Shown piece after piece: positions 12,454 to 61,573 of a stretch of 64,000 nucleotides of DNA (positions are counted from its first letter, which is position 1; every line of letters starts with the position of its first letter). This stretch comes from Eledone cirrhosa (lineage: Eukaryota), in NCBI GenBank assembly GCA_964016885.1, contig OZ024742.1, positions 88,474,001 through 88,538,000 on the forward strand. Reading direction: 5' to 3'. The translations under genes and the position numbers were made by a program. The notes below the pieces were generated by a model, which did no database searches, was not told where the DNA came from, and was given only the letters and a program-made list of their open reading frames with translations.

Positions 12454-12561
12454 TTTGACTTTGCCTTTCATCCTTACGGGGTCGATAAAATAAAGTACCA
12501 GTAATGTACTGGGTTATTGCTGGCCTTGTGCCTAAAGTAGAAACAATTATTATTATTATTA
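12454..12561 (+). mobile_element. 5'-truncated SINE whose (ATT)n tail opens nested array 1
   Basis: TTTGCCTTTCATCCTTACGGGGTCGATAAAATAAAGTACCAG...GCTGGCCTTGTGCCTAAAGTAGAAACA(ATT)n, shared with copies at 41.4, 44.9 and 47.2 kb. Confidence 0.85.
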
Positions 12562-12570
12562 CTGTTGTTG

Positions 12571-14753
12571 TTGTTCTTTGAGTCTCAGTCATTGATGTTA
12601 TTTAACTGGAAAGTTTGTTGAAATGAATATCAAGCCACTACTTGCAGCCTCAGATATATAGGACGTTACGGAGGGTTATTGCTGTTCCCAGCAAGCATGC
12701 CTTTTGAAGTGTTCCAAAAAGCGGCGCTGGACTAATCTTCTTTAACCATCCTTGGAAACTCTTTGAGATAGTACCTAGTGCGCCTATGACAATCGGGACG
12801 ACCTTGATTTCATTGCAGTTCCAAAACCTTTTTACCTCCCACTTTAAATGCTGGTATCTGTTAATTTTCTCCCTCTCCTTTTATTGCACTCTCGTGTCAA
12901 ATGGACAGACTACATCTACGATCAGGCACGATCATTTTTGCTTGTCCAAAACCACAAGGTCAGGTCTATTGTGTTCTAATTTCTTGTCCGACTGTATCAT
13001 AAAATCCCATAGCATATGCTCATACCAATTCTCAGATTGTGGTAAATTGTTTACTTTGCATAGATGGTAGTGGACCAGCCTGCCTATCACATCCAGTCTC
13101 CAGCCTTTATAATGAGTCTGGGCTAGGTGTTTACACTCGGATACAATGTGAGCCACAGTCTCTCTCCACAGATCCTACACAGTGAGCTAGCCTCCTTCTT
13201 GCCAATATGATGTTTCACGCACTTCGTTCTGAGGGCTTGCTCTTGCGCGGCAATTAGCATTCCTTCTATAGCTTTTTAAGGTCTCCTCTTTTTAACCAGT
13301 TCCATGTATGTGGATCTCTAAATTCAGTTTTCCTAAAGAAGGGATTTTTCATGAAGGTTGCTCTTCTTCCTTGTTGTTAGTTCCTACTTGGACATCCCCT
13401 GGCCTATTGTCTTCTCGTTCAGTACAATTTTGAGCATTGGCTCCCTACTATCATCCACGTATTTATGCAGAATGTATTTCTCTATCTACGTCTCTCCTCT
13501 TGTGGAACATGTTGTGGATAGTCAATAGCTGCCTAGTCTTCCTATCCATTTCTTTTTCTTCAGCAACATTCCATTTCAGAATTCCCGCACCGTACCTAAT
13601 AATAGACACATCTCGAAAATCACTGCACTTATGACACTCCTACTATTTAGATGTTATTTTAATATGCTCCTTACTCTCCTTATGTACTCAGATCTTATCA
13701 ATTCCTTCATCTTTTTTGTTCTTGATGTCATCTTCTTCCAGAACACCTAAATATTTGTATTCTTCTTCAGTGTAAATTTCCTTTATCATCTCACCTGTTG
13801 GTACCTGGATTCCGTTACTTCTGCCCAATTTACCTCTCTTCATCACTAGAATATCACACTTATTAATACCAAATTCCTTACATATATCATTGCTGAAATT
13901 CCTTACATATATCATCACTCTTTTCAAAGAGTTTAAGAACGTCCCAACTTGTATCCTTCTCTCACTGTTCGCAATATAACGGTCAGAGGGGCAGAGGGGA
14001 CAAGCAGCAGAGGGGACAAACACCTCCCTAGAAGATACCTCTCTTGATCTTCACGCCTCCCAAGGATTCTCCACCCGATGTTAATTCTGTTTCCCAGGAC
14101 TTCATACTTTTGCTCAACAACTCTCTAATGTTAACTGCCACCTTGAAGATCTCTAGGCTTTTGGTTATCCAATAATGAAGTACCATGTCGAATGCCTTTT
14201 TGTAATCCCATGGCAAGACCAGTGTGTCTCCTCTTCAATTCCTCATTACCATCGTATCAATAAGTAACTGGTCTTTTGTACCATGAGACTTCTTTCGGCA
14301 TCCTTTCTGTTCGTCCGGTAACAAGTTGTATATATGGAGGTGATGGTAGATTTCCTCAGACAAAATGCTTGTTAACAGTTTCCACATTACGGACTAACAT
14401 CTGATAGGGGTATAGTTGGTAACATCATTACCCTAGATTCGGTCTTTCATTACCAGAACCTTGGTACCTTTTGTCAACCACTCTGGTACATCACCCGTCA
14501 TCAAGCAGTCATTGAACATAGTTGTCAGTTTCGGATGGAGAGATGTTATATATTTAATCCAATACCCTTGCACACCATCTGGGCCTGGTGATTTCCAGTT
14601 GGTTAGCTTTTTGGCCTGCCCCTTAAGTGTTTCAACTGTGATACTCACATCAGGTTGTTGATGTACTTGTTCATTGATCTCATTTTGAACTGTCTCAATC
14701 CACACTGCCTGGCTATTATGTTCAACCCACACTGCCTGACTACTATGTTCAAC
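12571..14753 (-). mobile_element. R4/Dong-clade element family D1, 5'-truncated and decayed
   Basis: Homologous to the 32641-36033 ORF: WKSPGPDGVQGYW, DYKKAFDMV, YKYLGVLE, HNRPDLVV. Flanked by (ATT)n. Confidence 0.92.
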
Positions 14754-14767
14754 ATTATTATTATTAC

Positions 14768-14807
<40 letters not shown>

Positions 14808-15031
14808 GGACGCACATGTGTGAAGAATCCAAATCTGCGTGGGAAAAGGTTCGTAACTTTAAGCTATTTTAAAGTGTCATTTTATGTATTTTCTTGTCGT
14901 AAACGAAACTCAAGGTACACATCTTGATTTAAAGAGAGGGATACCTCTCAATATTCGGGCTTTAAGCCCGAATATTCAGATTTATTTTTTAAAAACTTCG
15001 AAAAAAATCGCTTCCCCACCCCCAAAAAATT

Positions 15032-17023
15032 ATGGAAATTGTCGACCTAGAAACGGTAAACAACGTTTAGGTCAATAGTTTAAAGGCAGCCACTGTAGAT
15101 TTCACCACGACTACGACGGCTACAGCCATGCCTGTCATCCACTCTACTGAATGTGAAGGCAAAACTAAAGAGCTACCGTCACAACCTGCTGTGATAGCAG
15201 CAGTATCATCTGAAAACGACATCACCACCGCCGCCACCACTACCACCACAACAACAACAACTCAGAGCAATAACGACAATAACACCGACAGCTTCAATGT
15301 AAACACGGATGGCGGTGGCAACAGCATCAACAAACAAAACAACAACAACAACACCAATAACAACAGCAACAATGACCACACCAACAATAAAAGCATCAGA
15401 AGCACCACATTTGCTGCAGCAACAGCAAAAACAAAGCGCTTATTGAATATTGATATTGATATTAGCGATAAAGAAGAACAGTTGGCCCAAGCGTGGAGGC
15501 TAATTAAACGGGAGAAGTCCTGGGCAAACCTGACCATCCCGGACGAGGTAATAGCGGCCATGCAAAGAAGGACGGTGCTATTTCGATGCATTTCGGTTCA
15601 GACACGAAAAGTGGAACTTGCCAGCCAAGCTGAGGTAGAGGCTGCTTTGGAGTACATCGGAAGTAACATAGAGTACAAAGCAAGAGGCAAACAGTTCGGT
15701 ACCATCTCGGTACTGTTCAAAACCGAGGCCCTCGCTATTAAGCACTTGGTGACCCCCTGCAGAACGGAACGCATTATCATGCATCCGTCCTATATGGGTA
15801 AAAGGACAGTAAAGGTACGCATTCCCAGCATCCCAGCAGGAATGAACATATGGTGGCTGCTGGCATGCGTAATCGAGGAGGGGACAGACACTACCCTCCT
15901 GGATATCAAAAGGACAGAGAGAGAGGACTGGTCCGGAATGGATTTGGAGATTCTTCTCTAAATGAAACCGGAGGACATGAAGACCATTCCGGATTTTGCC
16001 CGCCTGCAGGACGGGACAACAATCCAACTAATCATTGACGGAAGAAGGACACGCTGCTTCGTCTGCGGGGAAGCAACCATCTGCAAGCCTTTTGCCTTCA
16101 GCGCAAAAATGCAGGGGCTCGCAAACCTACTTTGTTGCCAACGCCAGTGTCAGCACGGAAAGCTGCACCACCACCACCATCAAAAACAACACTAACAAAA
16201 ACACGGACACCAACATCAAAAACAGCCGAATCACCACCAACACCAAAACCAATCCAAGGGGAAAACGAGGAAAACTCTCCCACTCCTTCTACCCCCCCCA
16301 CATTATACGCATAGACAAAACAATAAACGCACACACAGACACAGAGACACTCACAGCCACAGACCATTTGTCTTCCAGCAGCGAAGAGGAGGGAAAACCC
16401 AAAAGTGCAAAAAAAACAGAGTAAAAATAAAAAAAAAAAGCCCCAACAAAACACAAAAGCATACACAACGAAAAATACAGACACCACTAACGCAAACACT
16501 TCCCCAATAACATCATCACCAACAGCAACATCGACACCACCTCCACAATCCCCGAAACGCAAACAACCTAAACAAACACAAGTACAAATAATCACACAAA
16601 TACCTGAAATTGCAGACACCACACCTACAACAAACACAGACATACCCGAAACAACACCACCAAAACCATCACCACCACAGTCTCCAAAACAAAAACAAAT
16701 AAAACCACACCAACAAAATATTAAAAACTTCGTGCTTGTCAGAAGGGCCAACGATAATCTGATGGCCCTCTTAGCATGAAGCGAGGACATTCAGACAGAG
16801 GGGGGAGATTTTTGAAATGAACACATTTTGCGTGCCAGAAGATTAGCTTCTGGTCCGAATGTCACGCAATTCCTTCAAAGAAATTCGAGAGAGCTTTCCT
16901 CAAGACCTGGGAACTCCGAATGTGAAACCCACATCAAGACTTTTAAAGGGATTCCCAAAAGAAACCCCGCCAACCATGGAGGTCGAACAACCCGACCTTC
17001 ACAAGACCCCGGGAGGTAAGTAA
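15032..17023 (+). pseudogene. Tx1-A ORF1 (Thr/Asn-rich N-terminus, RRM-like domain, CCHC knuckle, Pro/Thr-rich tail), disrupted
   Basis: KQFGTISVLF..., GRRTRCFVCGE. The C-terminal RMSRNSFKEIRESFPQDLG aligns with family B RITQKTYMTLKQKFPKDIG and ends GGT AAG TAA. Confidence 0.8.
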
Positions 17024-17054
17024 ACCTTCCCTCTCTCTCTCTTAGCTTACCAAT

Positions 17055-20000
17055 ATGGCCATATTAAGAGTAGGAAGTTTAAATGTTTGCGGCCTGGGGT
17101 CACCCTGGAAGCAGGGTCGCCTGCTCAACGACCTCAGGCCATTGGAAATGGATGTGATTACCGTCAGCGAGAACAGAATTTCCGACACGCGCGCACTAGC
17201 CCCCATTTTCGACGACTATCAAATCTCCGCATCTGTTAGCAGACCTGAATTGGGGGTGGGGTGGCAGTGCCATTTAGGAAAGGACTGGATCTCGGGGGTA
17301 AGTTCGATCTACGGGATTCGGATGGTAAGTTGGTGGTCTTGGATGTGAGCAGTAGCGAAGGTGGTGCCTTTAGACTGCCGGCCGTCTATGCCCCTACAGG
17401 GGCCGGATGACCGGACTTCTTTAGGCACCTGGAGACCTTTCTGGGTACGTCTCGCCCTTTATTGTTAGCGGGGGACTGGAATGACATCTTAGACGCACGC
17501 TGGAATTGTGTGGGTGTAGCCGATAGGAGCGGGGGGTGCAAAAGCCTCAAGCACCTACTCAGACAGTTCCAACTGTCCGACAGGTATCGACTAGATTTCC
17601 CCAATGTGCAGATGTGGACATGGACCAACCGAATGGGGTCATCTAGATTGTATATAGGCAGGATCTTCATTAGGAAAATAGATAGAAATAGTGTAGGCTG
17701 CCCACTTTTTAAAATGTTCGCCTATTCAGATCACAAATTTGTGATCTGTACGGTCGACCTAGATAAAACGCGTAGGTTAGGACCGGGTTACTGGAAGCTG
17801 AACATGTCATTTCCAGCACGTAAGGTTTACAGGGACCGAGTCAACAATTTAGTTAAGCAAAAGTTGACAGGGGGATCATCAACAACAAATGGTGGGGGCT
17901 CTCAAAAGAGAGATTAGAGTAACTTGGATAGAGTTCAGCAAAGAACTAGCGTTAGAGAAAAATAGAAAGGAGCGGGAGCTGGTAGATAAGTTAGACGAGG
18001 CTATTTGTAGTGGTATTGCAACTGACGTGCTACCGGCGAGAATGCCATTAGACCATTTCTTTAATGCAAAACACGAAGGTTGCATTGTCAGAGCTAAGGC
18101 GCGTGCGCTAAGAAACGAGGGACCAAAGCTGTTCGATGGGCCCGCGTGGTGGAGGCGCAGCGTGGTAATAAAACCACAATTCGGTCTTAGGCCGACCGAG
18201 ACGGACACGAGATAAGCGATTGCAAGCGGATGTGTGAGGCCTTTCGCCAGAACTTTGCTCGGTTGTTCTGGGAGAATGCCGAGTCATAGAGAGTAGCGGA
18301 TTTCAATCCCTATCTTGACGGCTTGCCGCGCATCTGGACGGTCGTCGCTGAGCGCTGCGAAAGGCCGATTACTTCAGCCGAAATTCAGGACGCTCTTGTC
18401 GGCTGCATAAGGCGCAAGTCACCCGGTTTGGATGGCCTGCCCTACGAGCTTTGCGTAAATATGCAGACTTGTTCTCCGAACGCCTCGAAGCACTTTACTG
18501 CAACTGGCAGCAGAATGGGAGTATTCCCAGTTCTGTGAGCAGGGGAGTGGTGACGCTGATAAGGAAAGACGAGAACACGAGGGATACATTAGACAACTTC
18601 AGGCCCATAACTCTGCTCACCACAGAGTTTAAGATTTTGGCCAAAGTGTTAGCAAAGAGATTGGCGCTTGTCGTCGAGGATTTGGTTGGGGAGGAGCGAA
18701 CTTGCGCAATCCCAGCCAGGTCCATACACGACAATCTCCACCTCATGCGATACATCATAGAGAGGGTATGGTGTAAACCTGGCTTCGGTGGGGCACTGAT
18801 CAATTTAGATCAATCGAAAGCTTCGATAGGGTTGACCATTGGTACCTGGAGTTTGTCCTCAAAGCAGCTGGCTTAGGCCCTGTCTTCAGAAGCTGGATCG
18901 CTGCAATACACAGCGGCACACGCTCGGTGGTCAAGGTTAATGGCCACCTCTCGGAACTATTTCGGCTCTCCCGATCGGTCCGTCAAGGGTGCCCTCTCAC
19001 TTCCCTTATGTACGTATTGACTCTCGAGCCTTTTCTTCGGAAGCTGGAGCTGTTGCAGGGCATGGGGAAAGGCTGTGTCGGCTTATGCGGACGACATCAC
19101 CGGGATGGTGTCGAACACCTCAGAAATCGAGGTCGTCGGCACCTTATTGAAGGAATATGAAAGGTTGACAGGAGCCAAACTTAACCCGGAAAAGACGGTG
19201 GGCTTGCAGCTTGGAACCTGGAGAGGTAAGCCCATGCCGTCCAACAGTGTCGTGGGGCGCTGGACGAACAGACCGGTAAAGTTGCTCGGGGTTTGATTCG
19301 GACCAGACCTCCAGCTGGAAAATAATTGGGACGAGGTAACGAGCAGAGTACCTAGTCTCACCCAAAAATGGGCTGGGAGGAAGCTATCACTAAAATGTCG
19401 CGCGGAGGTGGCGAATGCGTACATCGCGTCCGTCATCTACTACCGTCTGACCGTCGTGCTTTTCCCCCGTCCGCGCCTCATCAAGTTGGAACGGCTCCAC
19501 TTCAAATTATTGTGGAGAGGACAAGTTCCGTTGGTGAGGCGGTCCATCTGCTGCCAGCACCCTCTACGCGGAGGGCTGGGCATGCCGTGCCTAATGATGT
19601 GCAGACATGCGTTGAGGCTGCGACATCTCCAGGTATTCTGCCTCAAAGTGGAACAGGTGTGGTCGCCGTTTATCAGACGGGCCTTTCCGCAGCTCATTTC
19701 TTTGACTGAGCTGCAGTCCTGGGTCAAGAAGAGACCGAGACTGGGTGACTGGCACCTGGAATGTTGCCAGGAACTAACTGCCCTCTACCAAGCGGGCAAT
19801 GCGATCAGTGGAACTTCCACTCTCGAGTTCTATAGAGGATTAGTGGTGGGCAAGTGCGATGACGCACTCGGAGAAGCTTTGGGCCTCGACGAAGTCGAAC
19901 TGACCAGTCTGTACCGGAGGACTTTTGAGCCGGGTACGATGGACAATTTCCAGAAATCCCTCGCTTGGCAGTTCTACCGTGGGGCACTGCCGGTTCGGGA

Positions 20001-20453
20001 TAAAGTCTACAGGCACGGAAGTGCTGTCAGACGGACTGCCCAAGATGCGCACAGAACGACGAAACCGTTCTGCACGCACTTGTCCAATGTCCGTGCATTA
20101 CTGACTTGTAGAGTTATGTCGACCAGCTACTGTCGCGTGTGGAACGAATCCGGTTATCGGCCGAGGCCATAGTGAAGATCGACCCACCGCCTTCCTTAGG
20201 TCAGGAAGAGCAGGAAATTTTCCTCTGTCTGGTGGCAGTTGCTAAAGAGGTTATATGGAGGACCAGGTTAAAAGGACTGAAGAGAGACACTTTTCTCTTC
20301 GGCCAATCCTTCATCAACTTCTTCAAGTTTCACCTGGAAAGGAAGTTGAAGGTGGAGAGAGAAGTGCTGCGCCCCAGTACATTTCCTAAAAGGTGGGTGA
20401 ATGTGGCGATCATGGCTCGTGTGAATGGGCCTACTCTGTCCATGCGCCTATAG
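17055..20453 (+). pseudogene. Tx1-A ORF2 (APE-RT-zinc finger), frameshifted
   Basis: SLNVCGL, GDWN, SDH, GYWKLN, KSPGLDG, NFRPITLL, VRQGCPL, AYADD, GGLGMP. Confidence 0.92.
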
Positions 20454-20730
20454 GCTAGCTAACTTGAGGAAAGGGGTGCTCTTCCTGGGTGCCCTAGAAG
20501 CGCAGGGTGGTTCAGGATTGGTGGGGTACCCGAGTCACCCCAGGGCGGTCCACCCCTATCGGCGAATTTATTTTATTATATTTATGCATAGATTATTTTA
20601 TATTTTTTATATGTTCATTGTTAAATTAGTCTTGTCATTGTGCACTTTTACTCGACCTTATTGTAAACACCCACTGTCCCTGTCTTTGTATTGTCCCCTA
20701 CATGTCGGCTCTTGTGGTTAATACATGAAA

Positions 20731-20768
<38 letters not shown>

Positions 20769-21085
20769 GAAAGATGGGTGAGAGAGGCAATAATAGCCCG
20801 AGTGAACGGGTCTACTCTGAGTATGTCTCTGTAAATTAAAGGTGGAAAACTGGGAAAGGGCACAGGCCCTACTGGTCAGGGTTACTGTGGCTTTTTAATG
20901 GGTTTTCTCCACGAATGTCCCTCGGAAGTCTCCCCTGTATAGGGGCATTTTTCATTGTTATTTTTCTGTTACATCCTCTGTTTTTGTTTTTTGCAAGCAG
21001 ATATGCCCATTTGTACTGTCCTGTATTGTCCTGTACTGTCCTTAATGTCTACTTTATGTAAACCCTTGTGGTTAATAAAGAGACC
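20769..21085 (+). mobile_element. Tx1 family B 3' fragment (severely 5'-truncated)
   Basis: Matches 59198-59506 (GAAAGATGGGTGAGAG...CCCTTGTGGTTAATAAAG). (ATT)n on both sides. Confidence 0.92.
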
Positions 21086-21110: not shown

Positions 21111-21149
21111 TACTGGGTAATTGCTGGCCTTGTGCCTAAAATAGAAACA
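21111..21149 (+). mobile_element. SINE 3'-terminal fragment embedded in (ATT)n
   Basis: TACTGGGTAATTGCTGGCCTTGTGCCTAAAATAGAAACA followed by (ATT)n. Confidence 0.8.
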
Positions 21150-21209
<60 letters not shown>

Positions 21210-24200
21210 GGCGACCAACGTAGTAAATCGTATCATCGTGAGCTCCGCAAAGGTTTGTCGTTTTCGTTTGTTTAAAATTGCCATTTATGGAAATTTTTGA
21301 TTGTTAACTGTATATAAGTGCACATACATTGTTTTCCGAAAAGGACACTCAAAAAGATTAGGGCCTTGAGTCCAAAATTTTATAATTATCAAACAAAAAT
21401 TGTATAATTATCAAACAAAAATTTTTCTTTGAAGCATCATGGCTTACTCAGAGTCACTCCTTTCTAACAAACTAACACCTCACACCGACACCACCATTGT
21501 AAATATTACTACGTTTGCCAACACTAAAAATATAAGCAGTAGCAATATTTTAAATTTGTCTCAGGCAGACATTCATTTCCCGCCATTACCAATGACTGCA
21601 GGTGTTAAAGCCGCCACCACCACCACCACCGCGTCAACAGAAACAAAAGAAAAAAATAAATTAACTCGTGATATCGAAATGAATTCAACCAAAATGAACT
21701 CTTCCACACCGAACACCATTGATGCCACCACCACCACAACTGAAACTAAAATTAATAATAACAAAAATAACGATAACAACAGCAGCAACAATGACATTAA
21801 GAAAACCCCACTGAGTCTTCCCAGAGTAGTAAAACAGTGCGAAGCATTTCAGGTAACTCAGGAGGAATTAGAAGAAGCCAAAAAAATGGCAAAGAAAGAT
21901 GGGTACAGGGCAAGCCTGACCCCTCGACACCCCCACATAATAAAATGGAGCATCGGCGCCTATGCACCGTGTCTCATCGAACAATTAATATAAAATTGCG
22001 CCGAGTGGAACGGGCATCCGAGTCCCAAATCCATAAAGCTTTGGGACATGTAAGGGCAGTGGTGGTGGTACTGTTGGATGTGGTGGTGGTACTGTTGGTA
22101 GTGGTGGTGGTACTGTTGGTTGTGGTGGTGTTACTGTTGGTTGTGGTGGTGGTAATGTTTGTAGTGGTGGTGGTACTGTTGGTAGTGGTGGTGATACTGT
22201 TGGTTGTGGTGGTGGTACTGTTGATTGTGGTGGTGGTACTGTTGGTAGTGGTGGTGGTACTGTTGGTTGTGGTGGTGGTACTGTTGGTGATGGTGGTTGT
22301 ACTGTTGGTAGTGGTGGTGGTACTGTTGGTTGTGGTGTTGGTACTGTTGGTGATTGTGGTTGTACTGTTGGTACAAAACCAACGCCTGTGGCGGATTTTC
22401 CATTCCAGGCCTATCACAACTGGAGACAGATCGTGACGACGAGGAGTGGGAAACGGTATCAGGAAAAAAGAAAAAAAGAAACCAAAAAAGAAAAAAACTC
22501 TCTTTGTTCACCCTCCAAAAAAGAAATACAGATGGAAACAAATAAAATATCAAACAAAAAAGTTAGGACAGACATGCCACCATCCACACGAGCATCACCA
22601 ACCCCATCACCCCAAACACCAACACCATCACCATCATTAATCCCAACATCCCCTATACAACAAAAGTCACCAAAATGTGAAATGGAAACAAACCCACAAC
22701 AAACGCGAACAAAACAAAACAACCAAAACGATAAACACTACACAGAATTAAATTTGAACAACAATCAATTATTACACTATAACCAACACGACACCAGCAT
22801 CACAGAAAAGACTACACAACAACCCACAAGTTCACACCACCCCCACACATACAAATCACTCGCATCACACGGAAAACGTACATGACACTAAAATAAAAAT
22901 TCCCCAAAGACATCGGAGACTTCCGACAAGCACTCTCCAGGAGGATTTATAAGGACATCCTTCCTGAGGAAGCCACAAGCAGTGAAAAGGATGCAGAAAC
23001 CGTCCTTCCTCTACGAAAAGTAAGGTAAGTGGTCTTTCCCATCTTTTCCACTCCATTTCAACATGACATCACTCAGCATAGGCAGCATAAATGCGCGTGG
23101 CTTGGGGTCGTCATGGAAGCAGTGCCACCGTCATGGAAGCAGTGCCACAGGTCACTAAACATAGATGTAGTGGCCATTAGCGAGACCAGAATCTCCGAAG
23201 CACGGGCCTTCCAACTGATCTTCGGCGGCTACGATGTGTACGCATCTCCCAGCCGTCCTGGATCGGGGGAGGAGTTGCTGTGCTTTTTCGGAGAGGTTTG
23301 GATCTTGCCATACAGGCCATCTTCCTGGACCCAGAAGGTAAGCTGGTGGTGCTGGACATGACCACCGGAGACGAGCAAGCTTTCAATTTATTGGCCGTCT
23401 ATGCCCCGACAGAAGCAGGGCGGCCTGATTTCTTCCGGCGTCTGGAGACCTTTCTTGGAACGTCCCGCTCTTTAGTGTTAGTGGGCGACTGGAACGGGAT
23501 CTTAGATGCACGCTGGGATTGTGTGTGATTAGTGGATAGGGGAGGAGGGTGAAAGAGTCTCACCAAGCTGCTCAGGGGTTTTGAATTGTCTGACAGGTAC
23601 CGATTGGATTTCCCGAACGTGCCAATGTGGACTTGGACAAATCGCATAGGGTCATCCAGATCATATCTAGATAGAGTATTTTGTAGGGAAATAGATAGGT
23701 CTAGCATAGGCTGTCCACAATTCAAGATAGTCAGCTACACCGACCACAAATTCGTAATCTGTGTGCTTGATTTAGATAGGCTTCATAGACGAGGACCCGG
23801 CTACTGGAAGCTAAACGCGTCCTTACCAGCGCGCAAGGCCTACAGAGACCGGATTAGCGAACTAGTTAAGCGAGCGTCGACGGGGGCCATCGTCAACGTG
23901 TGGTGGTTTGCTCTGACAGTCCATTATGTTTAGTAAGGCTTTAGCAATAGAGAAAAAGAGAGTAGAGGGAGAATTATTTAGAAAATTAGACGAGGCGCTT
24001 TGCAAAGGCATCGCGACCGACGTACTTGCGGCGATATTGGCCCTTGACCAATTTTTCAATGCAAAGCACGAAGGCTGCGTTGTCAGAGCTAGGGTGCGTG
24101 CTCTCAGACACGAGGGGACGAAAGCCGTTCAATGGGCCCGAGTGGCGGAGGCGCGTCGTGGCAACAAAGACACGATCCGGTCTTTGGTGGACCACGACGG

Positions 24201-26688: not shown

Positions 26689-26704
26689 ATTATTATTATT
26701 ATTA

Positions 26705-29700: not shown

Positions 29701-30640
29701 TTTTGAGAATTATGTTAGTCTTGTGTATTATCTTTTGGTTCTGTTTGGAGTTCTGGATCTTAGGGAGGATGTCTCGTTGCCCCATGTCAGATTCTTTCAT
29801 TTTCATCCATTCGATCATAATTTCATCCTTCAAGTTGGCAAGTTCATTCTCATTCATTTCTTTATCATTTACGATGTCATTATTTTCATTTGGAGTTTCA
29901 TCTTGAGTATGCACTCCCTCCACTTTTTCGATCCTTTCTTTAATTTGTTCTGTTGTCAGTGATTCCGCCCCAACCCTGGGATTCGAAGTGTTACAATTTA
30001 CCTCGTTTTCACTGACACATGTTTCATTTTCCCTTCGCTGACTTTGTGCTACTAGCTTGATCTGATCAATTTCTATATCAGTTAGTAACTTTTTTTTTAC
30101 AATATTTCTTCGTATATTGGCTAATTGTTACTGTCAATAGAGCCTCTATTTTCGGGATGTTTCTTTTTCCAGTTGATATATGTCTGTTCTGTATTCGATG
30201 TATTTGAGGGGTAGTACATGGCAGTGTAGAAAGCCTCAAGGACTTCTTTATTATCTTCCCTTGACCATTTTTCTCTCTTTTTCTTTGGATTTCTTGGTGG
30301 TGAGCATGGAGGGCCAACAGTAGGAGTATTCCGGTTATGGGAGGTCTCCAGCTCCGAAGTGATGGGAAGGTTTGAACCATTAGCTGATTTTTCGACCCCA
30401 GTCTGGTTCCTCTCTGAGGGACGCGGCCCTTTTTTACCCAGGTGACGGCCGATCCGGTATGAGATTTTATCATTCGACATTTACTTTATTTTGTCGCGTT
30501 TTATCCTTATCCGCCAAGGGGTAAACATTTCGTGTTACCACTTCTAGAACGAATGTCAACCAAGATTAGAGGGGTCGTTCTCGCCTAGAGACACGGCTAT
30601 TCCCCACCGGCCGCCATCCCGGTATTTCTTGGTCACGGGG
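26705..30640 (-). mobile_element. R4/Dong-clade element family D2, full-length; ORF ~30480-26834 disrupted
   Basis: Myb-like REKWSREDNKEVLEAFY; RT WKSPGKD, NYRPITCL, GIFQGDSLSP, FYMDD; RLE RHD, NRPD, KLSKYKDL. (TAA)n tail. Confidence 0.93.
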
Positions 30641-31719: not shown

Positions 31720-31760
<41 letters not shown>

Positions 31761-47707: not shown

Positions 47708-47764
47708 TTTCTTCTTCTTCTTCTTCTTCTTCTTATTATTATTATTATGATTATTATTATTATG

Positions 47765-47797
<33 letters not shown>
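47708..47797. repeat. (TTC)n-(ATT)n compound microsatellite opening nested array 3
   Basis: Direct reading. Confidence 0.95.
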
Positions 47798-50700: not shown

Positions 50701-53536
50701 AGGACCCGGCTACTGGAAACTAAACGCGTCCTTACCAGCGCGCAAGGCCTACAGAGACCGGATTAGCGAACTAGTTAAGCGGGCCTTGACGGGGGCCAGG
50801 GTCAACAACAAGTGGTGGTTTGTTCTGAAAAGAGCAATTAGAAAAGAGTCCATTAGGTTTAGTAAGGCTTTAGCTATAGAGAAAAATAGATAAGAGGGAG
50901 AATTAGTTAGAAAATTAGACGAGGAGCTTAGCAAAGGCATCGCTACCGACGTGCTTGCGGCGAAATTGACCCTTGACCAATTCTTCAATGCAAAGCACGA
51001 ATGCTGCGTTGTCAGAGCTAGGGTGCATTCTCTCAGACACGAGGGGTCGAAAGCCGTTCAATGAGCTTGAGTGGCGGAGGCGCGTCGTGGCAACAAAGCC
51101 ACGATCCGGTCTTTGGTGGACCACGATGGGCGCAAGCTACTCGATCCCGGGCAAATGTGTGAAGCTTTTCAGCGACACTTCGCACAGCTGTTCGGGAGCC
51201 GCGGCGGTCCGCATCGAGGGATGGACTTTAGTGTCCACCTCGACGGACTGCCGCGGCTCTCGGCCACTGAGGCGGAGTGTTGCGAAAAGCCGATAACAGC
51301 CGCTGAAGTACGGGAGGCAATGACTGGCTGCACAAGGGGTAAATCGCCTGGTTTGGATGGTCTGCCCAATGAACTTTACGTACAGATGCCAGACTTGTTC
51401 GGAGGCCTCTTTGCGGACGTCTACTGCAACTGCCAACAGAATGGGAGAATTCCCAGCTCTGTGAGCCGAGGAGCTGTGGTGCTGCTGAGAAAGGATCCGT
51501 ACAAGGGGGATAACATAGATAATTTCAGGCCCATATCTCTGGTAAACACAGAGTTCAAGATGTTGGCCAACGTTCTAGCAAAGAGATTGGCGCTTGTCGT
51601 TGGTGGTCTGGTGGGAGAGGCGCAGACGTGCGCAATTTCCGACAGATACATCCACGAAAACCTCCACCTCATGCGAAACATAGTAGAGAGAGTAGCTAGG
51701 GAAGCTGGCACGGGTGGGTCCTTGATCAATTTAGATCAGTCGAAAGATTTCGATAGAGTCGGCCATCTTTACGTATCGGCAGTCCTGAGGGCGGCTGGTT
51801 TTGAGCCCGTCTTCAGAGGCACGATCGCTTCCATGCACAGCGACATCTGCTCTGTGGTGAGAGTAAACGGTCACCTTTCGGAACCGTTTAACATCATGCG
51901 CTCGGTCCGCCGAGCATGTCCCCTCTCGTCCCTCTTGTACGTATTGACTCTCGAGCCATTACTGGAGACGTTGAGGGGCGTCAGTGGGCCTGCAGCTCGG
52001 CAGTGGGCCTGCAGCTCTGCACCTGGAGAAGCATGTCCATGCCGTCCAACAGCGTCGTCGCGCGCTGGACGGACGAACCAGTTAAATTGCTCGGCGTCTG
52101 GTTCGGTCCGGATCTCCAGACGGACAAAAACTGGGACGAGGTGACGGGCAGGGTGGCTTCTCTGACCCAGAAATGGGCCGAGAGGAAGCTATCCATGAAA
52201 TGTCGAGCGAAGGTGGCTAACGCGTACATCGCCTCCGTGATCTACTACCCCCTGACCGCCGTACCATGTCCTAAGCCCCGCCTGGCTGCGCTGGAGCGTT
52301 TCTTCTTTCGCTTTTTGTGGAAGGGACGCGCTCCGATGGTCAGGCGGTCCATCTGCTGTCAACACCCGCTACGTTGAGGGCTGGGCATGCCGTGGCTGAT
52401 GATGTGCAGACACGCGCTCAGGCTACGACAACTCCACCTCTTCCTCCGCGGTGATCAGGTGTGGTCGCCGTTTGCTACACACGTCTTTCCCCAACTCGTC
52501 TCCTTGACGGAGCTGCAGCCCTGGGTTAAGCGAAGACCGAGGGGGAGCGCTTAGAAGACTGAAATGTCTTAAGGCGCTCACAGCCCTCGACCAATCGGGC
52601 AATGTGATCGGTGGAAACTCCACCTTGGCATTCTATAGAGGATTAGTGGAAGGGAAGAGCGACGAGGTACTTGGAGAAACTCTAGGCGTCGACGAAAATC
52701 AACTAGACATTCTCTTCGGAAGGACTTTCGGGCCGGGGCCTATGGACAACTTCCAGAAATCCCTGGCCTGGCAGTGCTACCGAGGAGCTTTGCCAGTTCG
52801 GGATAAACTCTATAGGCATGGAGGTGCCGTCAGCGGGCAAGTCCGAGATGCGTGCAGAGCGACGAAATCGGTCTGCACGCACTCGTCCATTGTCTGAGCA
52901 TTGCTGACTTGTGGGTTTATGTCGAACATCTTCTGTCGCGTGTGGGACGGATCCAGCTATCAGCTGAGTCCATCGTGAGGATTGCCTTGCCCTCTTCCTT
53001 TATTCGGGAAGGCAAGCAGTTTTTATATGTCTGGTGGCCATTGCGAAAGATATAGTATGGTGGACACGTTTGAAAGGGCTGAAGACGAGCACTTACCTCT
53101 TCGGTGATGCCCTGATTAACTTTTTCAAATTTCATTTGAAAAGGAAAATCAGGGTAGAGAGGGAAGTGGTCTCCTCCCAGCATTTTCTTGAAAGATGGGT
53201 GAGAGAGGCAAGAATGGCCCGAGTGAATGGGCCTACTCTGAATATGTGTCTGTAAATTAAAGGTGGAAAACTGGGAGAGGGCACATTCCCTGGTGGTCAG
53301 GGTCACTGTGGCCTTTTAATGGGCTTTCTCCACACATGTCCCTCCGAATCCTCCCCCCTATTGGGGAATTTTTCATTGTTATTTTTTGTTACATTCTGTT
53401 TTTGTTTTTTTTACAAACAGAAATGCCCATTTGTACCATCCTGTATTGTCCTGTACAGTCCTTAATGTCTACTTAATAACCTTTTGCCCCGTCTTGTATT
53501 GTCCTGTACAGTCCTTAATGTCTACTTAATGTATAC

Positions 53537-53537
<1 letters not shown>
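47798..53537 (+). mobile_element. Tx1 family B copy 2, full-length and decayed (ORF1 48011-49944, ORF2 49984-53255)
   Basis: Starts GGCGACC. Collinear with copy 3. A deletion near 51980 removes the YADD region. The 3' end is rearranged. Confidence 0.93.
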
Positions 53538-53599
<62 letters not shown>

Positions 53600-53809
53600 G
53601 GCGACCTACGTAGTAAATCGTATCATCGTGAGCTCCGCAAAGGTTTGTTATTTCCGTTTGTTAAAAATTGCCATTTATGGAAAATTTTATTGTTAACTGT
53701 TTATAAGCACACATACATTGTTTTCCGAAAAGGACACCCAAAAAGATTGGGGCCTCGTGCCCAAAATTTTAACTTTTATTATTATCAAAAAATTTCTTTG
53801 GAAAAAAAA

Positions 53810-55805
53810 ATGGCTTCTTCACCTCTGCACGAAGCAGCTGAAAGCCTTCCTCACAAAATAACAGCTCACACCGACACCACCATTGTAAATGTTACTACGT
53901 TTGCCAACATAAAAAAAAATATAAGCAGTAGCAATATTTTAAATTTGTCTCAGGCAGACATTCATTTCCCGCCATTACCAATGACTGCAGGTGTTAAAGC
54001 CTCCACTACCACCACCACCGCGACAACCACCACCACCACCACCACCACCACCACCGCGACAACAGAAACAAAAGAAGAAAAAAATAAATTAACTCGTGAT
54101 ATCGAAATGAAATCAAGCAATATGGACTCTTCCAAACCAAAGACGACTGACGTCACCACCACCACAACTGAAACTAAAATTAATATTAACGAAACCAACA
54201 ACAACAACAATGACATTAGAACCCCCCCCCCCTCAGTTTCGCCAGAGTAGCAAAACAATTCGAAGCATTTACGGTAACACAGGAAGATTTAGAAAATGCC
54301 AAACAAATGGTAAAGAAAGATGGGTACAGGGTCAGCCTCACCCCCCCCCCCACACCTAATAAAATGGACCATCGGCGCCTATTCAACGTGTCGTATAGAA
54401 CAATAAATGTAAAATCGCGCCGAGTGGAACGGGCATCCGAGTCCCAAATCCAAAAAGCTTTGGGACATGTGTGGGCAAGATAAACCCACATCAGACGTGG
54501 GCAAAAGTATGGAACCGTGGACGTGTTCTTTGAAACACCAGAGGAGGCTAGAGAACACTCCATGGCCCCATTAAAAAGTGACGACTTCACACTCGTCCCA
54601 AGCTATTGTGGCCAGAAACTCGTAAAGATCAGGGTGACCCACGTTCCACCGGACATCCAAATTCCCTGGCTAATAGCGGCCGTCCTCGCCGGCATCGAAG
54701 CCAACACGAAAATAATAGCAATAGCAAAAGAAAAACAGGAAAACTGGTCCGGATCTGGGATGGAGCTCCTGATCCAAGCGGACCAAAAAAGGATTGAGGA
54801 GATCCCAGAGGTAATAGACCTCACTGACGGCAGCAACCTCACGGTAATTGTCGAGGGCAGAAGACCTAGGTGTGTCGTTTGTGGTGAAGGAACCCACCTA
54901 AGGGCTTTCTGCCCTCAGGCTAAAAGGTTGAGGCCACCTCTCCTACCCACCCCAGTGACACAACCATCAACACCACCAGTAGCAGAGATGGCAGCAACAA
55001 CTGTAGCAGCAACAACAGAAGCAACTATAACAGCAACAACCCCAGCAACAGTAGCAAAACCAACACCACTACCACCACCAGCAAAACCAACACCACCACC
55101 ACCCAACGCTTCAGAACTAGCACCAGCGCCCACACCATTCACCACACCACAACCAAAACTAACGGCTGTGGAGGATTTTCCACTCCCCGGCCTATCACAA
55201 CTGGAGACAGATTGTGACGACGAGGAGTGGGAAACGATATCCGGAAAAAAAAAGAAACCAAAAAAGAAAAAAATTGTCTTCCTTCCCCCTTCAAAAACAA
55301 AATACAGAGGGAAACAAATAAACTAAGAAACAAAAAAGTTAGGACAGATATGCCACCATCCACACCAGCATCACCAACCCCATCAACCCAAACACCAACA
55401 CCATCACCATCATTAACTCCAACACCACCATCACCTACACCACAAAAGTCACCAAAATGCGAAACAGAAACAAACCCACAACAAACGCAAAAAAAACAAA
55501 ACAACCAAAACGATACACACTACACAGCATTAAATTTGAACAACAAGCAATTATTACACTACATCCAACACAACACCAGCATCACAGAAAAAGACTACAC
55601 AACAACCCCAAAATTCACACCACCTCCACACATACAAATCACTCGCATCACACAGAAAACGTACATGACACTAAAACAAAAATTCCCCAAAGACATCGGA
55701 GACTTCCGACAAGCACTCTCCAGGAGGATTTATAAGGACATCCTTCCTGAGGAGGCCACAAGCAGTGAAAAGGATGGAAAAGCATCCTTCCCCTACGAGA
55801 AGTAA
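53810..55805 (+). pseudogene. Tx1-B ORF1 (RRM-like domain + CX2CX4HX4C knuckle, Thr/Pro-rich), broken at homopolymers and one stop
   Basis: KYGTVDVFFETPEEA; GRRPRCVVCGEGTHLRAFC. Frameshifts at a C-run (~54222) and an A-run (~55245); TAA at 54481. Confidence 0.85.
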
Positions 55806-55844
55806 GGTAAGTGGTCTTTCCCATCTTTTCCACTCCTTTTCAAC

Positions 55845-58800
55845 ATGACCTCACTCAGAATAGGCAGCATAAATGCGCGTGGCTTGGGGTCGTCATGGAA
55901 GCAGGGCCACCTGCTCAACGACCTCAGGTCACTAAACATAGATGTAGTGGCCATCAGCGAGACCAGAATCTCCGAAGCACAGGCTTTCGCACCGATCTTC
56001 GGCGGCTACGATGTGTACGCATCTCCCAGCCGTCCGGGATCGGGGGGAGGAGTTGCTGTGCTTTTTCGGAGTGGTTTGGATCTTGCCATACGAGCCATCT
56101 TCCTGGACCCAGAAGGTAAGTTGGTGGGGCTGGACGTGACCAGCGGAGACGGGCAAGCTTTCAGGTTAGTGGCCGTCTATGCCCCGACAGGAGCAGGGCG
56201 GCCTGATTTCTTCCGGCGTCTGGAGACCTTTCTTGGAACGTCCCGCTCTTTAGTGTTAGTGGGCGACTGGAACGGGATCTTAGATGCACGCTGGGATTGT
56301 GTGGGATTAGTGGATAGGGAAGGAGGGTGCAAGAGTCTCACCAACCTGCTCAGACGTTTTGAACTGTCTGACAGGTACCGAATGGATTTCCCGAATGTAC
56401 CAATGTGGACTTGGACAAATCGCATAGGGTCATCCAGATCATATCTAGATAGAGTATTTTGTAGGGAAATAGATAGGTCTAGCATAGGCTGTTCACAATT
56501 CAAGATATTCAGCTACACGGACCACAAATTCGTGATCTGTGTGCTTGAATTAGATAGGCTTCATAGACGAGGACCCGGCTACTGGAAGCTAAACGCATCC
56601 TTACCAGCGCGCAAGGGCTACAGAGACCGGATTAGCGAACTAGTTAAGCGGGCTTTGACGGGGGCCATCGTCAACAACAAGTGGTGGTTTGCTCTGAAAA
56701 GAGCAATTAGAATAGAGTCCATTAGGTTTAGTAAGACTTTAGCAATAGAGAAAAATAGAGCAGAGGGAGAATTAGTTATAAAATTAGATGAGGCGCTTAG
56801 CAAAGGCATCGCGACCGACGTACTTGCGGCGAAATTGGCCCTTGACCAATTCTTCAATGCAAAGCACGAAGGCTGCGTTGTCAGAGCAAGGGTGCGTGCT
56901 CTCAGACACGAGGGGACGAAAGCCGTTCAATGGGCCCGAGTGGCGGAGGCGCGTCGTGGCAACAAAGCCACGATCCGGTCTTTGGTGGACCACGACGGGC
57001 GCAAGCTACTCGATCCCGGGCAAATGTGTGAAGCTTTTCTGCGACACTTCGCTCAACTGTTCGGGGGCAGTGGCGGGCCGGATCGAGGGATGGACTTTAG
57101 TGTCTACCTCGACGGACTGCCGCGGCTTTCGTCCACTGAGGCGGAGTGTTGCGAAAAGCCGATAACAACCGCTGAAGTACGGCATGCAATGACTAGTTGC
57201 ACAAGGGGTACATCGCCTGGTTTGGATGGTCTGCCCTATGAACTTTACGTACAAATGCCAAACTTGTTCGGAGGCCTCTTGGCGGACGTCTACTGCAACT
57301 GGCAACAGAACGGGAGAATTCCCAGCTCTGTGAGCCGAGGAGCGGTGGCGCTGCTGAGAAAGGATCCGAACAAGGGGGATAACATAGATAATTTTAGGCC
57401 CATAACTCTGCTAAACACAGAGTTCAAGATTTTGGCCAAGGTGCTAGCAAAGAGGTTGGCGCTTGTCGTTGATGGTCTGGTGGGAGAGGCACAGACATGC
57501 GCCATTCCCGACAGATCCATCCACGACAACCTCCACCTCATGCGATACATCGTAGAGAGGGTAGCTAGGGAACCTGGCACGGGTGGGTATTTGATCAATT
57601 TAGATCAGTCGAAAGCCTTCGATAGGGTCGACCATCGTTACCTAGCGGCAGTCCTGAGGGCGGCTGGCTTTGGGCCCGTCTTCAGAGGCTGGATCGCTGC
57701 CATGCACAGCGACATCTGCTCTGTAGTGAGAGTGAACGGTCACCTTTCGGAACCGTTCAACATCATGCGCTCGGTCCGCCAAGGATGTCCCCTCTCGTCC
57801 CTATTGTACGTATTGACTCTCGAGCCATTACTGCACAAACTGGAGACGTTGAGGGGGGTCCCGCGCGAACTAGGATGCGGAAAATCCGTGTCAGCATATG
57901 CCGACGATGTCACCGTAGTGGTGTCGAACGCCAAACACATCGAGGCGATCGGCACTACACTAAGAGAATACGAAGCGGTGACAGGAGCAATGATCAACCA
58001 GGAAAAGTCAGTAGGCCTGCAGCTCGGCACCTGGAGAGGCAGGTCCATGCCGTCCAACAACGTCGTCGGGCGCTGGACGGACGGACCGGTTAAATTGCTA
58101 GGGGTCTGGTTCGGTCCAGACCTCCAGACGGACAAAAACTGGGACGAGGTGACGAGCAGGGTGGCTTCTCTCACCCAGAAATGGGCCGAGAGGAAGCTAT
58201 CTCTGAAAGGTCGAGCGGAGGTGGCGAATGCGTACATCGCATCCGTCATCTACTACCGCCTGACCGTCGTACCTTGTCCTAAGCCCCACCTGACTGCGCT
58301 GGAGCGTTTGCTCTTTCGCTTCTTGTGGAAGGGACGCGCTCCGATGGTCAGGCGGTCCATCTGCTGTCAACACCCGCTACGTGGAGGGCTGGGCATGCCG
58401 TGGCTGATGATGCGCAGACACGCGCTCAGGCTACGACATCTCCACCTCTTCCTCGACGGTGATCAGGTGTGGTCGCCGTTTGCAAGACACGTTTTTCCCC
58501 AGCTCGTCTCCTTGACGGAGCTGCAGTCCTGGGTCAAGCGAAGACCGAGAGGGAGCGCTTGGAGACTGGAATGTCTTCAGGCGCTCACAGCCCTCGACCA
58601 ATCGGGCAATGTGATCGGTGGAAACTCCACCTTGGCGTTCTATAGGGGATTAGTGGAGGGGAAGAGCGACGACGTACTTGGAGAAACTCTAGGCGTCGAC
58701 GAAAATCAACTAGCCAATCTCTTCGGAAGGACTTTCGGGCCGGGGCCTATGGACAACTTCCAGAAATCCCTTGCCTGGCAGTGCTACCGAGGAGCTTTGC

Positions 58801-59263
58801 CAGTTCGGGATAAACTCTACAGGCATGGAGGTGCCGTCAGCCGGGCATGTCCGAGTTGCGCGCAGGGCGACGAAACCGTCCTGCACGCACTCGTCCAGTG
58901 TCCGAGCATTGCTGACTTGTGGGTTTATGTCGAACACCTGCTGTCACGTGTAGAACGGATCCAGCTATCAACTGAGTCCATCGTGAGGATTGCCCCGCCC
59001 CCTTCCTTTAGCCTGGAAGGGCAGGCAGTTTTTATCTGTCTGGTGGCCATGGCGAACGAGATAGTATGGTGGACACGTTTGAAAGACTGAAGACGAGCAC
59101 TTACCTCTTCGGTGATGCCCTGATTAACTTTTTCAAATTTCATTTGAAAAGGAGAATCAGGGTAGAGAGGGAAGTGCTCTCTTCCCAGCATTTTGTTGAA
59201 AGATGGGTGAGAGAAGCAAGTATGGCCCGAATGAATGGGCCTTCTCTGAGTATGTGTCTGTAA
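55845..59263 (+). CDS. Tx1-B ORF2: apurinic-like endonuclease, reverse transcriptase, CCHC finger; 1081 aa open, then one frameshift near 59087
   Basis: SINARGL, SET, GDWN, LDR, TDH, GYWKLN; NFRPITLLN, LDQSKAFD, VRQGCPLS, AYADD; CPSC...ETVLHALVQC. The C-terminus continues in ORF 59066-59263. Confidence 0.95.
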
Positions 59264-59505
59264 ATTAAAGGTGGAAAACTGGGAGAGGGCACTTGCCCTG
59301 GTGGTCAGGGCCACTGTGGTCTTTTAATGGGCTTTCTCCACAAATGTCCCTTGGAAGTCTCCCCCCTATTGGGGAATTTTTCTTTGTTATTTTATTTCAA
59401 CCTCTGTTTTTTTACACGCAGAAATGCTCATTTGTACCGTCCTGTATTGTCCTGTACTGTCCTTAATGTCTACTTTATGTGAACCCTTGTGGTTAATAAA
59501 GAAAA

Positions 59506-59538
<33 letters not shown>

Positions 59539-59559
59539 CATTTTTATTATTATTATTAT

Positions 59560-61197
59560 ACTTGCATTTATCTTGCTTTATGTTCATACGAGTTATCACC
59601 AAGTCACAACCAGTGACCTCAACAGACAACAAGATCCGCCATGTTCAAGAAAGAACATACATACTCACACATGCATCTTTAGGTGTTTAGACTTGTGATG
59701 TACTTATATTGACAGAAACTTCCTTAATATATGGGCAGTTCCATTAGTACTATCTTTTGTATTTCTCCTATACGCGGATTTCCTGGGATTTGCGATAAGT
59801 AATCATTAGACCCCTTAGGTATCATTCCTAAATCGCCTACAACCAATGGTATTGTTTTAGTTCTCAATTTCCACATTTTTTCAATTTCTATCTCCAGGTC
59901 CTTATACTTGCTCAATTTTTCAGATGTTTTTATAGATACATTCTTGTCTATTAGAACGGACATATCTATTAGCAGGCATACTCTCTTTTTAAAGTCCTTC
60001 AGTATTATATCAGGTCTATATGCATCTATTCTTCGGTATGTTTGGATGCTAAAATTCCACAAGATTGAGATGTGATCTTTTTCAAGTATGGGAGGTGGCT
60101 GATGCACCCACCAATTCTTTTGATGGTGCAGGTCAAAATGCTTACACATTATCCAATGTATGTATTGTGCAGCTCTGTCATGCCTGTTTAGGTATTCGGT
60201 TGGAGCTATAGGACTGCACATTGAAATGATATGGTCAATGGTGTCTGGTTGTTTTTTACATACACCGCATAATGGGTTACATCCATTTTTTATTGTTGGC
60301 TTGGTAATATTTTGTTGGCAGACACTGATCTTGTGCTCATATAATCAGTCGTTCAGTCTCCGATTTCAGTCCAGAGGATGCCAACCACTGACATGTTAAA
60401 GTGTTGTCAACATCAGGATTGTTATCTCTTTCTGGGTATTTTCTATACAGAGGCTTTTCTTGCTATTTCTTAGCCAGTTTCTGTAGCAGTTCTTTCTTTG
60501 CAGTTACTTTTGCCTGCTTTACTTTTTCTGTGTTTTCCATTTCAACAGTAAAGATGTAGTCCATTACTGTATCTTTGTGCATCTTTTGAAATGGAGTATG
60601 ATCTCCTGATTCTTTCGTGTTTCAAATCGAGTTTGATCATCCAATCATGTGATTCCCTTAGATATGTAGATAATCCAATTGTTGCAGTTTTCAACGCAAT
60701 GTCTAACTGGATTAACCCACGTCCTCCTTTTTTCCTAGGGAGATATATTCTATCTGTATCTGCCTTAGGGTGATGCATTCTGTGCACAGTTAAGAATTTT
60801 CTAATTTTTGTATTGAGCCTACGGATCTCTGTGCTTGACCAGTTGATGACATTGTAACTGGTATGGCAAGCGTGTTTATGGCATCGATCCTATTCCTTGC
60901 ATTCAATTCCGTTCTTAAGATTACTCTTACTCTGCGGTTACGTTCCTTTCTTATCCTTTCCCTCATTGTCGAGTGCTTGATTCCGTCTTCTTCACAAAAA
61001 CCTAGATATTTGTAAGTTTCCTCTTGAAGAAGTACTCTTATCACATTCCCCTGATCAAGATGAATGTCTGAACTTTTCTGCAGCTTTCCTCTGGTAAACG
61101 TTGCTTTGGCGCATTTATCTTGTCCAAACTCCATTTTAATGTCATCACTGAACTGCTTCACAGTGGATAATAGCCCTTCCAATTGTTCATCATTTTT
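59560..61197 (-). mobile_element. R4/Dong D2, 5'-truncated and decayed
   Basis: Collinear with 26705-28357. Truncated just after the FYMDD region. Confidence 0.93.
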
Positions 61198-61244
61198 AAA
61201 TAAATAATAAACAATAATAATAATAATAATTATTATTATTATCA

Positions 61245-61541
61245 TTGTTCTTTGAGTCTCAATCATTGATGTTATTTAACTGGAAAGTTTGTTGAAATGA
61301 ATATCAAGTCACTACCTGCAGCCTCAGATATTCAGGACGTATCGGAGGGTTCTTGCTGTTCCCAACAAGCATGCCTTTTGAAGTGTTCCAAAAAGCGGGG
61401 TGAGACCAATTTTCTTTAACCATTTTTGGAAACTCTTTGAGATAGTACCTAGTGCACCTTGATTTCATGGCAGTTCCAAATCATTTTTACCTCCTTCTTT
61501 AAGTCCTGGTACGGGTTAATTTTCTTCCTCTCCTACTCTTG

Positions 61542-61543
<2 letters not shown>
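61245..61543 (-). mobile_element. R4/Dong D1, short 5'-truncated copy
   Basis: Same 3' UTR and ORF end as 12571-12890. (ATT)n flanks. Confidence 0.9.

Positions 61544-61573
<30 letters not shown>

Follow-up and report, generated by a model that had tools for sequence, protein, structure and literature searches.

Tx1-clade retrotransposons fixed on microsatellites have been described: Kibi inserts into (TC)n, Koshi into (TTC)n, and crocodilian families into (TTCC)n or (TTTC)n (PMC4494074; PMC3812793). Likewise, Dong of Bombyx, Anopheles and Biomphalaria inserts into (TAA)n (PMC3812793; PMC3774820). We analyzed a stretch of 64,000 nucleotides of the 3.0-Gb assembly of Eledone cirrhosa (contig OZ024742.1, positions 88,474,001 to 88,538,000), referred to as the window, in which long interspersed nuclear elements (LINEs) of both kinds lie together in nests of (ATT/AAT)n tracts. 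The family labels T1 to T7, D1, D2 and R1 were coined in this analysis, and the names Tx1-like, Dong-like, RTE-like and Penelope-like rest on anatomy.

Like the Kibi, Koshi and crocodilian elements, the Tx1-like families of the window (T) are L1-group elements with two open reading frames (ORFs) and an apurinic/apyrimidinic endonuclease (APE), fixed on a microsatellite; they are set apart by their target, (ATT)n, which a sister family replaces by (ATCT)n. The R4/Dong-like families (D) share with Dong a single ORF with reverse transcriptase (RT), CCHC motif and restriction-like endonuclease (RLE), and the (TAA)n target on the element strand. The 5′ end of Bombyx Dong is a self-cleaving ribozyme resembling that of hepatitis delta virus (HDV) (PMC3774820), whereas D1 and D2 start with an ∼1-kb leader that is common to both families and resembles Tx1-like 5′ untranslated regions (UTRs). 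Shared targets and opposite polarity both have precedents. Keno and Utopia are APE and RLE elements that evolved in parallel on U2 snRNA genes (PMC4640811), but they use the same site and the same 3′ flank in a low-copy gene, while the elements described here lie on the two opposing strands of a repeat that is dispersed and probably grows with each insertion. TRAS and SART form arrays in opposite orientations in one simple repeat, (TTAGG)n (PMC7265360); both are APE elements of telomeres, whereas here one APE and one RLE lineage are spread across the genome. In its working, the system resembles Kibi or Koshi combined with Dong on one repeat. Neither a Tx1 family that targets ATT or ATCT nor a description of shared nests turned up in our search of the open literature, which did not extend to Repbase and subscription papers; Repbase, for one, may already list such a family.

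Target and polarity across the genome

Tx1-like and R4/Dong-like LINEs occupy the same (ATT/AAT)n tracts throughout the genome, in opposite orientations. The original prediction, made from the letters of the window, had read five Tx1-like insertions on the plus strand and eight R4/Dong-like insertions on the minus strand, and had proposed ATT-specific Tx1 families. Mapping recovered both sets (Table 1), with ATT tracts of 4–20 units as spacers. We then tabulated flanks and orientation for copies collected genome-wide, and found ATT flanks and opposite, fixed polarities. The 21-mer that opens T2 occurs 1687 times, and 1570 occurrences (93%) directly follow ATTATTATT, that is, (ATT)3 in one exact phase, in agreement with the proposed specificity. 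A T at position –1 is missing in only 10 of the 1687, all of which close an ATT tract with a changed last base; the remaining 107 were not read individually. The phase is ATT^GG in T2 and ATT AT^GG in T1 (a caret marks the junction), and all 30 T2 3′ ends read show GAAAAC^ATT without poly(A).

The R4/Dong-like families gave the mirror image. Full-length D copies have (AAT)n within 70 nt of the 5′ end in 29 of 30 cases, the other one having only (GAA)n, and AAT repeats follow all 30 D1 3′ ends. Among 5′-truncated D1 copies, 20 of 22 carry (AAT)3 at the 5′ junction, which argues that the repeat is the target and not a tail alone.

A census of ends over all fetched loci, including neighbors of the anchors, which are enriched in nests, gave a similar result: 187 of 193 Tx1-like ends adjoin ATT, and 193 of 206 Dong-like ends adjoin AAT, while 7 adjoin GAA (one end has both). 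No Tx1-like or Dong-like end in this census is reversed or lies on TA or CA. The exact T2 5′ counts and the anchor sets are free of nest enrichment. The findings named beforehand as fatal to the proposal, non-ATT 5′ flanks and random orientation, did not appear. In an unselected sample of 40 evenly spaced 10-kb pieces (400 kb), tract densities per Mb were 1200 for TA, 185 for CA and 60 for AAT; TA tracts are thus 20 times commoner than AAT tracts, yet unused by these families. Of the 24 ATT tracts in the sample, 16 as we read them touch a T or D end and one more touches only a short interspersed nuclear element (SINE).

Some D junctions depart from the simple pattern. At five loci (L189, L191, L192, L195 and L196), (GAA)n separates (AAT)n from the D leader, which has GAAGAAG within its start, and at L187 and L207 the first 20 nt of the leader are repeated. 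Slippage at the 5′ junction is likely to create new GAA microsatellites. A D1 piece in R1 (L152 / L351:2401-2767) has reverse polarity at an AATATT site, with ∼8 AAT units against what seems to be one in the target; here, a D1 tail may have seeded a tract of the opposite sense.

Probable growth of the tracts and choice of target

Our preferred explanation of these observations is a renewable shared target: both kinds of element would use the same tracts in opposite orientations, each insertion leaving more repeat than before. We consider this quite probable, and insertions likely rebuild the target that both kinds of element need. The claim that insertions feed a growing array is supported by two nests in a repeat of known empty length. 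This repeat, R1, is young (676 candidates) and has an internal ATT tract; it forms the terminal portion of an element that is Penelope-like and contains a GIY-YIG frame. Of 30 R1 copies, 21 are empty, with a median of 10 units (range 3–18), 7 contain a SINE with a 10–20 bp duplication and no tail, 1 is deleted, and 1 has another insert. Both nests between R1 arms were found from a T2 anchor. The nest at C2:98.11 Mb reads 11 units, T2, 12 units, T2b and 18 units, giving 41 units for 2 insertions. In the one at C2:318.53 Mb, a single T2 and six D pieces share 13 kb; its 8 spacers of 11, 7, 16, 6, 21, 12, 10 and 16 units give 99 units for 7 insertions. In both, ∼12–15 units were gained per insertion, resulting in four to ten times more ATT than at empty sites. 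Because the gain exceeds what target duplication alone would give, added tails matter. At C2:318.53 Mb, an AAT interruption marks each end of the nest: the tract at the D2 3′ end reads 2 units, the interruption and 8 units (∼7 extra), that at the T2 3′ end 14 units, the interruption and 1 unit (∼12 extra). We take the pattern of this marked nest to be a short target that was duplicated, with a new tail added at the 3′ end of each element. Moreover, interruptions of the D1 tail are common to many loci (AATAACAATAAC at 23, AATAACAAC at 19), which argues for partial copying of the tail from the donor. Young T2 copies have long flanks (median 18 and 17 units, n=17), and older T1 copies short ones (6 and 6 units, n=19).

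Several observations weigh against tract growth by insertion. Only two such nests are available, and their starting lengths are inferred from paralogues. At L133, a T2 3′ end meets its target directly, with a duplication of 27 bp but no added tail, and the SINE insertions in R1 (7 of 30 copies) add only their 10–20 bp duplication. A T or D element lies at the tract in none of the 30 R1 copies, so interrupted tracts of 10 units may be poor targets. Pure tracts of 18 units occur without any insertion, and therefore slippage also lengthens tracts. A search for an empty allele of a filled young T2 locus in contigs of four runs found none and was uninformative. As observations on R1 itself (L311-L340), its 10-unit tract seeds new landing sites, and all 7 SINE insertions have their 3′ junction at the same unit.

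Following target-primed reverse transcription (TPRT) logic, the element's opposite strand serves as primer (AAT for T, ATT for D), so that synthesis would start from a nick that the Tx1-like protein makes in the AAT strand and the Dong-like protein in the ATT strand. Transcription of the element likely continues into the tract downstream; in T2, the AATAAA signal stops 6 nt short of the junction, and RNA cleavage would therefore take place within the repeat. Pairing between this RNA repeat and the nicked primer would account for the constant C^ATT junction, for the absence of poly(A) and for the interruptions that D1 tails inherit. Copying of the RNA repeat, with slippage, would add the tail, and a staggered second nick would duplicate 10–27 bp. 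An identical T-A step is present on either strand, so polarity does not have to reside in the endonucleases and could come from pairing of RNA repeat and primer as well.

We weighed two narrower explanations, each of which we think possible but rather unlikely on its own. In the first, the endonuclease is the only determinant: it reads one strand, insertion leaves just a short duplication, and slippage restores the split tracts to 10–20 units. Swapping the endonuclease domain indeed moved the specificity of TRAS1 onto SART1 (PMC7265360), the endonucleases of ATT and ATCT families differ at many positions (∼60% identity), empty pure tracts reach 18 units, 5′ flanks match 3′ flanks in length, and L133 lacks a tail. 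However, the extra units at the 3′ ends in the marked nest grew from 1–2 units, too short for much slippage, the D1 tail interruptions in common need an RNA template, and the flanks of older copies are shorter rather than equal.

The second explanation, held with the same reserve, places the choice in the RNA tail. Here the endonuclease would make a generic T-A cut (T^AT on the element strand), and the 3′ repeat of the RNA, inherited from the donor site, would pick both microsatellite and strand. The 3′ junctions of T2, T5, T6 and the SINE, which all start AT or AATT after GAAAC, agree with this, as does the hairpin aligned with the L1 specificity loop, which is nearly identical in ATT and ATCT families. 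The SINE, having the same tail motif and no long repeat, goes widely into ATTA sites (18+3 of 28), and pairing with the target raises accuracy in SART1 and R1 (PMC7265360). On the other hand, the exact 5′ phase (ATT^GG in T2, ATT AT^GG in T1) points to second-strand cuts set by protein, and the published swaps make the endonuclease the main determinant. We favor read-through priming plus target duplication; protein and RNA may both have a share in target choice.

That there is no targeting, ATT being only a tail and the nests arising by passive accumulation, segmental duplication or misassembly, is refuted, even though many 5′ flanks are the tails of earlier elements and copies cluster in 7 of the 40 sampled pieces: 93% of 5′ ends are in exact phase, the 5′ junction of truncated copies shows the repeat, insertions lie inside the internal tract of the unrelated repeat R1, neighboring copies differ by 7–10% (the T2 copies of the window are mutually only 90–93% identical), and flanks differ among the 30 genomic copies read, so the copies are independent.

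Anatomy, sister families and exchanged 5′ ends

The intact ORF2 of T2 (1081 aa) contains APE, RT and zf-RVT domains (Pfam) in an APE-RT-CCHC layout; its closest solved relative is human L1 ORF2 (E 1e-51), and its catalytic motifs align with the L1 endonuclease. A single-sequence fold of the T2 endonuclease was unusable (pLDDT 36). In ORF1 of T2 and T5, we read a zinc knuckle CX2CX4HX4C, although the zf-CCHC matches fall below the curated cut-off; a ZCCHC3-like cluster at high confidence is a lead only. The T families thus show the ORF anatomy of the Tx1 clade, an APE/RT/CCHC ORF2 and an ORF1 with a gag-like knuckle, as well as its sequence-specific insertion with target-site duplication: 15 bp around T6 and 27 bp at L133, whereas duplications are unreadable in pure tracts. 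Tx1-clade membership, which rests on this anatomy, is likely. The same grade applies to membership of the D families in the R4/Dong clade, again from anatomy. The 1130-aa ORF of D1 has an RT domain (Pfam), and CCHC and PD..D..K endonuclease motifs were read directly in the translation. It therefore has the single-ORF layout of this clade (RT, CCHC, C-terminal PD..D..K, no APE), together with insertion in (TAA)n on the element strand. Its nearest solved relatives are R2 proteins, and among the matches listed are at least 120 homologues at 34–66% identity, none informatively named. Likewise, the homologues listed for the T families include no named Tx1-clade member. A metagenome scan returned no matches.

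Further features of these proteins and their genes were noted in passing. A GGTRAGT block resembling a 5′ splice site, a pyrimidine run and the ORF2 start are kept in T2 (55808-55847), T1, T2b, T3, T5 and T6, though the endonucleases of these families are only ∼60% alike; the block could be a splice donor or a U1 site. T6 at L259:2556-6290 is a 5′-truncated copy with an intact 1145-aa ORF2, flanked by its 15-bp duplication at a non-repeat site beside SINEs. In a limpet, 11 near-identical members of a relative with 31% identity (cluster P0044) bear consecutive locus tags on a single chromosome, which suggests a tandem, site-specific array there.

The sister family T5 uses (ATCT)n, at 29 of 30 3′ ends and 20 of 28 apparent 5′ junctions; some of the missed 5′ junctions reflect alignments that break within the element. 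Together with further Tx1-like families, T5 builds tandem (ATCT)n nests of its own (L360-L389, L395, L407; 992 3′-end candidates). A quick tree with unnamed outgroups places T6 and the ATCT families within the ATT families (SH-aLRT 98 and 88, no bootstrap), which suggests that the ATT target came first.

The last 25 nt of the SINE match the ends of T1, T3, T5 and T6 (by eye, no statistic), and its duplications measure 10–20 bp. Since a shared 3′ tail and a matching duplication are expected of a LINE partner, the SINE is likely moved by Tx1-like families. SINE pieces with ATT tails do occur in the window, as predicted, but the SINE is not ATT-specific: (ATT)3 follows only 3 of 28 3′ ends in unselected DNA. 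No tRNA head was called in the SINE copy of the window.

D1 and D2 proteins are only 40% identical, yet the two families have a leader in common over up to 580 nt at 73–86% identity. Its first type was found in all 10 D1 and 2 of 9 D2 copies read (91–96% over 230 nt), the second in the other 7 D2 copies. One D2 copy with the type-one leader is 97% like other D2 at the 3′ end, so this swap was recent. T2b is similarly composite, its 5′ end being of T3 type (85%) and its ORF2 that of T2 (96%). The D2 copy of the window extends to 31722, including a 1.2-kb 5′ region; 36176 and 30630, tried as the 5′ ends of D1 and D2, were rejected, both elements being longer.

The layout of the leader (∼210–226 nt, an A run, ATGG) is that of Tx1-like 5′ UTRs. 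Against window-shuffled controls, the D1 leader scores z 5.0–6.1 with T3 and ∼3 with T1 and T2, as high as T1, T2 and T3 among themselves; the second leader type reaches z ∼2 against Tx1-like 5′ UTRs. At 3.4 bits, against 4.2 for shuffles, a profile of all six Tx1-like 5′ UTR types misses the D leader; with held-out Tx1-like families it was for the most part unsuccessful as well. With the unalignable T7 type removed, a choice made after this result was seen, the profile gives 9–15 bits on 9 of 10 D1 leaders (best shuffle 3.9 in 500). A tblastn comparison of the leader with ORF1 proteins gave no match, and each of the 30 leader loci continues into D1 or D2, never into the body of a Tx1-like element. 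A sequence beginning GAATGC is a Tx1-like 5′ end and not a Dong-type 3′ end. In the D leaders, an HDV-like ribozyme was detected neither by Rfam nor by a descriptor of our own that had no positive control. On balance, these similarities lean slightly towards the D leader being a 5′ end or promoter captured from a Tx1-like element. Crowding in the same tracts likely favors such exchange of 5′ ends between families. The nearest parallel is found in the R2/R1 hybrid SIDEs of Drosophila rDNA, in which the 5′ part of one clade sits on a co-resident element of the other (PMC3414825); those are non-autonomous, with an RLE 5′ part on an APE 3′ part, while here an autonomous RLE element would carry an APE-type 5′ end. 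Within the D2 5′ UTR, a SINE tail between repeat remnants is also covered by contig X6 from a run of another organism; we read it as a fossil nest turned into element sequence.

A broader scenario, which we hold to be improbable as a whole, would have the repeat carried by the RNA largely set target and polarity, a change of tail shift ATT to ATCT, and an internal promoter of Tx1 type, traded between families, replace the Dong-type ribozyme.

Layout of the window and significance

The features of the window are compiled in Table 1.

Table 1. Elements and tracts of the nests, in window coordinates (a caret marks a junction)
Position	Strand	Feature
12455..12546	+	SINE 3′ half, then (ATT)5
12578..14721	-	Older D1-like R4/Dong element, 5′-truncated, 81% to young D1
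14808..20732	+	T1, full-length Tx1-like, ORFs broken; junctions (ATT)11 AT^GG and GAAATC^(ATT)12
20769..21085	+	T2 3′ fragment; (ATT)12 upstream, (ATT)8 downstream
21111..21149	+	SINE tail piece, then (ATT)20
21210..26688	+	T2 full-length copy, internally rearranged
26704..31722	-	D2, full-length R4/Dong-like; (AAT)13 at 5′ end, (AAT)5 at 3′ end
30723..30777	-	Fossil SINE tail flanked by ATT/AAT remnants, fixed within D2 5′ UTR
31150..31722	-	5′ leader common to D1 and D2, similar to Tx1-like 5′ UTRs over its first 230 nt; candidate captured promoter
31768..32524	-	D1 3′ fragment, 98% to young D1
32567..36176	-	D1, 5′-truncated (leader lost), intact 1130-aa ORF at 32641-36033
36207..36418	-	D1 3′ fragment, 99.5% to young D1
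36454..36962	-	Older D1-like 3′ fragment
47709..47797	+	(TTC)8, then interrupted (ATT)21 tract
47798..53539	+	T2 full-length copy, ORFs broken
53600..59506	+	T2 full-length copy, intact ORF2 at 55845-59090; junctions (ATT)20^GGCGACC and GAAAAC^(ATT)10
59562..61197	-	D2 3′ part
61252..61543	-	Older D1-like 3′ fragment; (ATT)7 at 61543-61563 closes it

In the rearranged T2 copy, a 21-bp unit repeated 15 times (22059-22372) stands in place of part of ORF1. Older R4-like remnants occur outside the nests too; one on the plus strand (42886-44312) adjoins a SINE on the minus strand (44839-44977), the same relative polarity, inverted. The earlier claim that nearby TA and CA tracts are unused holds for the T and D families but not for every element: an RTE-like LINE remnant on the minus strand (∼3360-6059) is flanked by (TA)8 and (TA)12. 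Five RTE-like relatives in the fetched loci likewise end in TA repeats, and TA tracts may have occupants of their own. Next to this remnant, a 137-bp inverted repeat (87%) flanks a TA/TG tract (6091-6466) and is perhaps a small DNA transposon. A GC-rich stretch of ∼700 bp (7658-8360) with open frames and no Pfam match is probably another element fragment. Rfam gave no match in the window and six loci.

In Octopus vulgaris, Dong-R4 and L1-Tx1 are reported among the most active LINEs, and the word "target" is absent from that paper (PMC13282606). In E. cirrhosa, the T and D families fill ∼8% of the unselected 400-kb sample (14.2 kb Tx1-like, 18.4 kb Dong-like). Given this share and the 16 of 24 ATT tracts that they touch, these families may be a main source of ATT microsatellites and of genome bulk. 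Our results add two targets, ATT and ATCT, to microsatellite targeting by APE-type elements. As close relatives use different targets, the question whether endonuclease or RNA tail decides is directly testable by swaps, and young copies with intact ORF2 are at hand for such assays. By rebuilding the repeat into which they insert, the two lineages would show how site-specific elements escape the exhaustion of their target.

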